Assembly: GCF_003334315.1 (NCBI RefSeq)
Contig: NZ_QOWR01000064.1
Reading direction: 5' to 3' (one strand)
DNA: 25,996 nucleotides
DNA from: Escherichia coli
GTDB taxonomy: Bacteria > Pseudomonadota > Gammaproteobacteria > Enterobacterales > Enterobacteriaceae
Shown here: one piece after another, positions 25,080 through 25,996 of the stretch
Layout of the letters: each line of letters opens with the position of its first letter
How positions within the stretch are numbered: the stretch's first letter is position 1
Notes under the pieces: generated by a model
The model's database searches: none
Seen by the model: the letters and a program-made list of their open reading frames with translations, nothing else
Told to the model about the DNA's origin: nothing
Position numbers and translations under genes: made by a program

Positions 25080-25792
25080 TTAGTTTACCGCCGCGTCAGT
25101 CAGTGCGTCTGCAAGGTGCACTTGGGTTTGCTGGGCGGATTGGGTAGATGTTTTTAGGTTTTCACAGACTAAAATATATTCTCTAATTCTTGATAAAATC
25201 AAGTTCTGTTGATTAAGAGGTGGTAATGGAATTGTTATTCCTCTGATTTTACCTACACTGAGATTATATAGGCCGCTAGTGGTAACAGCGAGCCGTTGCA
25301 TTTCTTTTATACCAGATGGCGAATTAAGATATAATGCAATAAACTCTTGATACCCTTCAATTATCCCTCGAACTCTTATCAGGTGATTTTGATAAACACA
25401 TTTTTCGATTGGAGCGTGCCAAATAGCACAACGACCAATCTCATCAGCACTACCATTACCTTCAACAATAAGGATGTCGTTTTTTTCTAACGACCAAAAA
25501 GCTAACTCATGAGGTTCTAGTTCGAATCTTTCAAGCTTATCAATGTTAATATCACCTCTTTGGACATTAGCAACCCGCAAATAAGGGAAATGGTTTTTAA
25601 CAGGTCGTCTTTTCGGTTGTTTTTGTATTCCTCCAGAAACAAACGTTAAGTCATCAATACGACACCATTCCCACCCTTCCGGCAGTTCAAACGGTTTTTC
25701 CTCGTCGCTAATTGGCGGCAGTGGTTTTTGTTTTTTTATTTTCCCTTCTTTCACCAATTGAGCTTTTTCCTGCGCAATTCGTTTGAGCAGTT
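25080..25792 (-). pseudogene. hsdS: hsdS (type I restriction-modification specificity subunit), 5'-truncated by IS1: central conserved region plus the second target-recognition domain only
   Basis: The frame is open from the IS1 junction: QLLKRIAQEKAQLVKEGKIKKQKPLPPISDEEKPFELPEGWEWCRIDDL…IPLPPLNQQNLI… (HsdS TRD and conserved-repeat motifs). The ORF-track 'M' at 25757 is a TTG inside the continuous frame; no start codon or TRD1 is present. Confidence 0.8.
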
Positions 25793-25996
25793 GGTGATGC
25801 TGCCAACTTACTGATTTAGTGTATGATGGTGTTTTTGAGGTGCTCCAGTGGCTTCTGTTTCTATCAGCTGTCCCTCCTGTTCAGCTACTGACGGGGTGGT
25901 GCGTAACGGCAAAAGCACCGCCGGACATCAGCGCTATCTCTGCTCTCACTGCCGTAAAACATGGCAACTGCAGTTCACTTACACCGCTTCTCAACC
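25793..25996 (+). mobile_element. IS1, 5' portion (left inverted repeat GGTGATGCTGCCAACTTACTGAT… and start of insA); continues beyond the window
   Basis: Matches the IS1 left end as I recall it; same orientation as the IS1 at 1-453. Confidence 0.9.
25849..25996 (+). CDS. insA: IS1 InsA, N-terminal part (3' end outside the window)
   Basis: GTG GCT TCT GTT TCT ATC AGC TGT CCC… = (M)[48 protein letters not shown], the zinc-finger N-terminus of InsA. Confidence 0.88.

Follow-up and report, generated by a model that had tools for sequence, protein, structure and literature searches.

A type IB hsdS remnant at the probable left edge of an IS1-associated deletion in the Escherichia coli immigration control region

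At the right end of a 25,996-nt stretch of E. coli DNA (contig NZ_QOWR01000064.1 of assembly GCF_003334315.1; this whole stretch is the window that we analysed), the reading frame of hsdS, which encodes the specificity subunit of type I restriction-modification systems, runs directly into an IS1 element. An earlier note on this DNA had described the arrangement as an IS1 insertion that truncated hsdS, and had raised the prospect that the 5' half of the gene, hsdM, and hsdR would follow on the other side of the element. The locus thus raises the questions of what remains of hsdS, what lies beyond the IS1, and by which route the junction arose. The far side of the element was known from the 10 nearest relatives in a collection of 5,426 complete genomes.

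The hsdS 3' remnant occupies positions 25080-25792 on the minus strand, an assignment based on its translation, its alignment to the HsdS protein of strain 510016, and its RefSeq label. Translation confirmed that the frame is open from the left end of IS1 (25793) to the stop at 25080, as the earlier note had it: the minus-strand frame extends between 25790 and the TAA stop at 25082-25080, with 236 codons ahead of the stop, and the codon at 25791-25792 is split by the hsdS/IS1 junction. The 236 amino acids align with residues 353-588 of the 588-residue HsdS of strain 510016, whose intact gene lies at L002 9601-11367, with two amino acid differences and five nucleotide differences over 711 nt (99.3% DNA identity). 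In the full-length 510016 protein, Pfam Methylase_S domains are found at residues 102-279 and 389-562, so that a break at 352/353 loses the first target-recognition domain (TRD1, 102-279) and keeps the second (TRD2, 389-562), in agreement with the claim that only the C-terminal TRD was left. TRD2 is whole; mapped from the full-length protein, PF01420 corresponds to remnant residues 37-210, at 25161-25682 on the minus strand. In the remnant, TRD2 is preceded by the second half of the central conserved repeat, which has lost 23 residues, and is followed by the C-terminal conserved region (helix).

RefSeq labels the identical DNA of relatives as 'restriction endonuclease subunit S, incomplete, missing N-terminus'. 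An NCBIfam search of the remnant gave a match to NF007278, and its hits to the EcoKI-type model were sub-threshold. A large protein search turned up no named enzyme for this allele, the hits being called simply 'restriction endonuclease subunit S'. TRD2 of the remnant aligned to the C-terminal TRD of EcoKI HsdS (residues 232-402) with 56 bits and an identity of about one third; prediction of the target from the EcoKI domain was rejected because this identity is too low to infer a half-site. With a single Methylase_S-type TRD (PF01420) instead of two TRDs, a central conserved region, and a complete open reading frame with a start codon, the sequence at 25080-25792 is a gene fragment or pseudogene, not an HsdS member in working order.

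Past the junction, the hsdS frame continues for 33 codons, 32 of which consist entirely of IS1 sequence; none of the 33 is a start codon. In the remnant, the first in-frame ATG is located inside TRD2 and none precedes that domain. The earlier statement that the stump lacks a start codon stands for ATG; the only candidate starts in the hsdS part are an in-frame TTG (25757), preceded at 9 nt by an AGGA, and an in-frame GTG (25754). On the minus strand upstream of the remnant we found no promoter-like site, including outward from the 204 nt of IS1 in the window.

Intact alleles of the locus are arranged symE-hsdS-hsdM-hsdR-X-antitoxin-yjiA, or carry a DUF262 gene in place of X and the antitoxin gene; hsdM is an N-6 DNA methylase gene and hsdR is labelled 'EcoAI/FtnUII family' by RefSeq. 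In type IB systems, the conserved N-terminal segment of HsdS is repeated in the central region. The 510016 HsdS shows this feature, with near-identical internal repeats at residues ~43-107 and ~330-394, one before each TRD, and the hsdS/IS1 junction falls inside the second repeat. Given the gene order of the intact alleles and their EcoAI/FtnUII hsdR, the ancestor is, on sequence grounds, a type IB (EcoAI-family) system in the immigration control region. Linked hsdM and EcoAI-family hsdR are present in the genomes with intact alleles and absent at the remnant in 10 of 10 relatives, so IB ancestry is supported and a present-day IB system is not.

The left end of the IS1 (IS1A type) lies at 25793-25996 on the plus strand. 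It opens with GGTGATGCTGCCAACTTACTG, the IS1 left inverted repeat (IRL), followed by a rightward insA with its GTG start at 25848, as placed from the offset of the RefSeq IS1 coding sequence and the sequence itself. The window ends at nt 204 of the element, so the right flank of the IS1 is outside it; over this length the element matches, without a single difference, nt 1-204 of the 768-bp IS1 that strain PSS-13 carries at the corresponding site. In relatives with identical DNA, the full 768 bp is seen with the transposase annotated as frameshifted, as expected for the insA/insB' programmed frameshift of IS1, under the label 'IS1-like element IS1A family transposase'. The 9-bp target-site duplication of an IS1 insertion is absent: the left flank of the element is TGAGCAGTT, whereas its right flank, seen in the relatives, is CACCATGGG. 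An independent IS1 in strain 510016, by comparison, has ACGTTTTTA on both sides. The missing duplication at the hsdS-side IS1 is what would be expected after a deletion.

The identical hsdS/IS1 junction was found in 10 complete E. coli chromosome records, among them PSS-13, with which the final 4,866 bases of the window agree at every position. The window both begins (1-453) and ends (25793-25996) inside IS1, as is common in short-read contigs, and a contig ending in a collapsed IS1 repeat could in principle create a false hsdS-IS1 junction. With the same junction present base for base in 10 closed chromosomes from different laboratories, hosts, and countries, the chance of such an assembly artefact is negligible.

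In PSS-13, TOE3, and AHM9C68I, the DNA beyond the IS1 continues with the 3'-terminal 414 nt of the membrane-protein gene X, an 'antitoxin' gene, and yjiA, and a query spanning hsdS', IS1, and X' was covered end to end in exactly the 10 junction records. A simple IS1 insertion would instead have left the hsdS 5' half, hsdM, and hsdR just past the element, with only the specificity subunit broken. Taken alone, the window is compatible with that account since it ends inside IS1, and simple insertions with a duplication do occur nearby, as in strain 510016. All 10 records with the identical junction nevertheless show X' to yjiA past the IS1 and no duplication, their chromosomes lack IB hsdM and hsdR, and the reciprocal junction that an insertion would have produced (the right end of IS1, IRR, followed by TGAGCAGTT and hsdS 5' DNA) had no one-piece match among the 5,426 genomes. 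The best matches to the reciprocal-junction query were unrelated IS1 elements in or close to hsdS in other strains, most of them from pigs. We therefore consider a simple insertion, the picture drawn in the earlier note, very unlikely; the genes anticipated past the IS1 are replaced in 10 of 10 relatives by X', the antitoxin gene, and yjiA.

Comparison of PSS-13 with 510016 by blastn, together with the flank sequences, placed a deletion junction at 25792-25793. Relative to 510016, ~5.69 kb of non-IS DNA is missing and replaced by IS1, comprising hsdS codons 1-352, hsdM, hsdR, and the 5' ~190 codons of gene X. Relocation of hsdM and hsdR was screened with a query in which a 4-kb lineage marker was joined to reverse-complemented hsdM/hsdR, an arrangement that prevents merged matches. 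The query matched one place in each of the 10 chromosomes and two in the listed genomes with intact hsd, and only three plasmid places were found in the whole collection. In this screen, which covered the IB family on the chromosomes, EcoAI-family hsdM and hsdR were thus not found elsewhere on the 10 chromosomes. As judged from these genomes, the hsdS stump is an orphan, with no cognate hsdM or hsdR on related chromosomes.

Further records share flanks that are 99.95-100% identical, and so belong to one clone. In this clone, the same right IS1 junction and an IS1 with 0/768 mismatches are joined to four different left endpoints: 25792 inside hsdS, the state of the window (10 records); 24926, just past symE (one record, cM2a); 23200, inside the GmrSD gene (10 records); and 22357, just past yjiS (one record, 2017.17.03CC). 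The three deeper endpoints are spread over 22357-24926, and at each of them this IS1, with its constant right junction, takes the place of everything that the window has further to the right. Adjacent deletions retain the insertion sequence, lack duplications, and often grow stepwise (PMC11708052). The series has the corresponding features: the IS is kept, one junction is constant, the other is variable and nested, and there is no duplication. A query for a prior simple insertion, X 5'-CACCATGGG-IRL, had no one-piece match in the 5,426 genomes; strain 673 and three others carry IS1 near or in gene X at other positions. An ancestor of this kind may simply be missing from the genomes sampled. 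On the evidence as a whole we consider it likely, with a probability of about 0.85, that the hsdS stump marks the left boundary of a deletion associated with IS1 in the immigration control region.

In the mechanism that we propose, an IS1 in gene X with its left end facing hsd would have removed the DNA adjoining that end by intramolecular replicative transposition, the classical adjacent deletion, which would keep the IS1 and its right junction and leave no duplication. Later or in parallel, further cuts by the same IS1 in clone-mates would have gone through what was left of hsdS (endpoint 24926), into the GmrSD gene (23200), and as far as yjiS (22357). This sequence of events, with the first IS1 landing in X and not in hsdS, is the presumed one. 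Adjacent deletion has, in our estimate, slightly better than even odds of being the route taken. The same product, a single IS1 with no duplication, could also result if two direct IS1 copies, one in gene X and one in hsdS, had recombined homologously. Each of these genomes has at least 40 IS1-matching places, and substrates of this kind do arise, given that 8 of the 10 records have another IS1 in direct orientation within the GmrSD gene, at a distance of only 3.2 kb. Variants shared by the IS1 copies of AHM9C68I at nt 298, 301, and 304 also point to IS1-IS1 exchange at the locus, and IS1 is found near or within EcoAI-family hsdS in other strains. Recombination would, however, require a fresh identical copy for each event, because the IS1 has 0/768 mismatches at all four endpoints against a usual spread of 3-8 nt; moreover, no two-IS1 intermediate was found at the required positions, and the site of the IS1B in the GmrSD gene differs from the 23200 endpoint. 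Since the IS1 is identical across all four endpoints, the balance tips towards a single resident element, and we regard direct IS1 x IS1 recombination as possible but appreciably less likely than adjacent deletion. The small remaining probability falls to other routes.

In AHM9C68I, the IS1 beside the hsdS stump differs from the PSS-13 copy only at the three positions named above, and the same three variants are present in the IS1B that lies 3.2 kb further left (IS1 copies at L001 13314-14081 and 9369-10136). This pattern suggests possible gene conversion between neighbouring IS1 copies. Gene X is an AT-rich membrane-protein gene of ~333 amino acids between hsdR and yjiA, with a 63-aa open reading frame annotated 'antitoxin' downstream; neither had a match to an NCBIfam family. 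Independent IS1 insertions were seen in gene X at three different positions in three lineages (L002 15443-17221; L006 6475-8238; L003, reverse complement, 5431-5873), and the gene looks like a local IS1 hot spot. For EcoAI-family hsdS, IS1 was located near or within the gene at other positions in several unrelated, mostly pig, strains, and IS1 disruption of this gene may be recurrent in E. coli.

To the left of the remnant, symE is intact, as had been claimed: its 113-aa open reading frame lies at 24518-24859 on the minus strand, and RefSeq annotates identical DNA as 'endoribonuclease SymE'. The symR antisense RNA is full length at 24854-24930 on the plus strand (Rfam RF01809; score 91.3 bits, gathering threshold 61, all 77 model positions covered), so that a symE open reading frame is accompanied by SymR antisense to its 5' end, as in the SymE/SymR toxin-antisense RNA pair. 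In cM2a (L009 6002; endpoint 24926), the deletion ends 4 nt before the symR 3' end and takes away all the DNA that lies 5' of symE on its coding strand, which probably leaves symE without its own promoter and SymR without its terminator end.

The GmrSD gene, at 22378-24471 on the plus strand, is an uninterrupted 697-aa open reading frame with GmrSD_N, GmrSD_C, and DUF5655 domains, a layout that corresponds to the architecture of type IV (modified-DNA) restriction enzymes. RefSeq splits the identical DNA of PSS-13 into a 'DUF262, missing C-terminus' pseudogene and a 'GmrSD domain' coding sequence. An IS1B follows window position 22624 within this gene, with the 9-bp duplication AACAACGGC, in 8 of the 10 related records. 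At the left end of the window, positions 1-453 are nt 316-768 of an IS1, with 0 mismatches and in the same orientation as the right-end element. This IS1 cuts fimH after nt 163 and leaves, in the stretch 291-1193, the open reading frame 459-1193; the source strain is therefore probably without a working type 1 fimbrial adhesin. In PSS-13, fimH is intact, and the IS1-fimH junction of the window had no match in the complete-genome collection.

The state of the locus bears on restriction and modification in this lineage. An r- m- phenotype had been predicted from an HsdS with one TRD. We agree with the expected phenotype and not with its cause: the lineage presumably has neither type I restriction nor modification from the hsd locus because the whole system is gone in its relatives, not because HsdS has a single TRD. 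As a general rule, loss of activity with one TRD is not safe, an exception that the earlier note had itself flagged. N-terminally deleted HsdS of EcoDXXI forms a homodimer that recognises a palindrome of its C-terminal TRD half-site (PMC3874165), and such half-HsdS homodimers need intact hsdM and hsdR. With the M and R subunits both lost, the exception has no bearing on this locus. We infer that the stump has no function, because it lacks an ATG, a recognisable promoter, and any partner subunit; the DNA that was deleted includes the native hsdM-hsdS promoter region.

For the stump to act nonetheless, it would have to be expressed from the TTG or GTG at 25757/25754, dimerise, and find an IB HsdM partner whose gene lies at another locus; the resulting methyltransferase would have a palindromic specificity. 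TRD2 and the C-terminal helix are undecayed, with five nucleotide differences and no frameshift, and the AGGA precedes the TTG at 9 nt. In addition, homodimers of HsdS with only the C-terminal TRD work in the type IC system EcoDXXI, and EcoAI HsdS tolerates circular permutation (PMC3874165). These points are outweighed by the absence of IB hsdM and hsdR from the 10 related chromosomes, by the finding that S subunits without M do not bind DNA (PMC3874165), and by the deletion of the native promoter region with no promoter-like site facing the stump. The 23 residues of conserved repeat missing before TRD2 further argue against activity, and the complete loss of the stump in clone-mates gives no hint of retention by selection. 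A working half-HsdS is therefore very unlikely.

The practical consequence is small: the lineage is expected to be without chromosomal hsd restriction and modification, which bears on transformation, phage work, and the reading of methylomes. The kind of event is already known, with a textbook mechanism and outcome in a well-known variable region and a fragment that RefSeq already labels incomplete. The nested IS1-anchored deletions are a tidy natural example of erosion of the immigration control region by insertion sequences, and the only mildly attractive aspect is that a natural nested series is present in one clone. Sources of this clone include poultry, a duck, and people. A more far-reaching proposal would be that one resident IS1 acts as a one-sided deletion engine that strips the defence island stepwise, first of the type I restriction-modification system (the state of the window), then of the SymE/SymR control sequences, and then of the GmrSD type IV gene, with the losses favoured by selection for easier entry of foreign DNA such as resistance plasmids. 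We consider this unlikely and offer it only tentatively.

Known systems place the locus in context. Like EcoAI-family (IB) systems, the remnant occupies the same chromosomal position, and it is 99.3% identical at the DNA level to the 3' third of a 588-aa hsdS; those systems have two TRDs, hsdM, and hsdR, whereas only TRD2 and the C-terminal region are left here. Engineered half-HsdS proteins, namely the N- and C-terminal deletions of EcoDXXI and EcoR124I delta50, resemble the stump in having a single TRD and a conserved helix, and in one case an EcoDXXI half-HsdS was made by transposon insertion (PMC3874165). They were active when co-expressed with intact hsdM and hsdR, while the stump has no start codon, promoter, or partners. 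Adjacent deletions by IS1, IS10, and IS903, and by IS150 in the Lenski long-term lines (PMC11708052), keep the IS with a fixed junction, lack a duplication, start exactly at the IS end, and have nested endpoints in related genomes, all of which is shared here; in contrast to the Lenski lines, the present series comes from a natural clone and its mechanism is deduced, not observed. Finally, in HB101/RR1 the whole mrr-hsdRMS-mcrBC region was lost through an insertion sequence (PMC5379014). In that case, as here, an insertion sequence removed restriction genes of the immigration control region and the strain is r- m-. HB101/RR1 is a laboratory strain of type IA (EcoB) background that lost the region entirely, whereas the present deletion goes no further than the interior of hsdS, so that symE/symR and the GmrSD gene are still in place.
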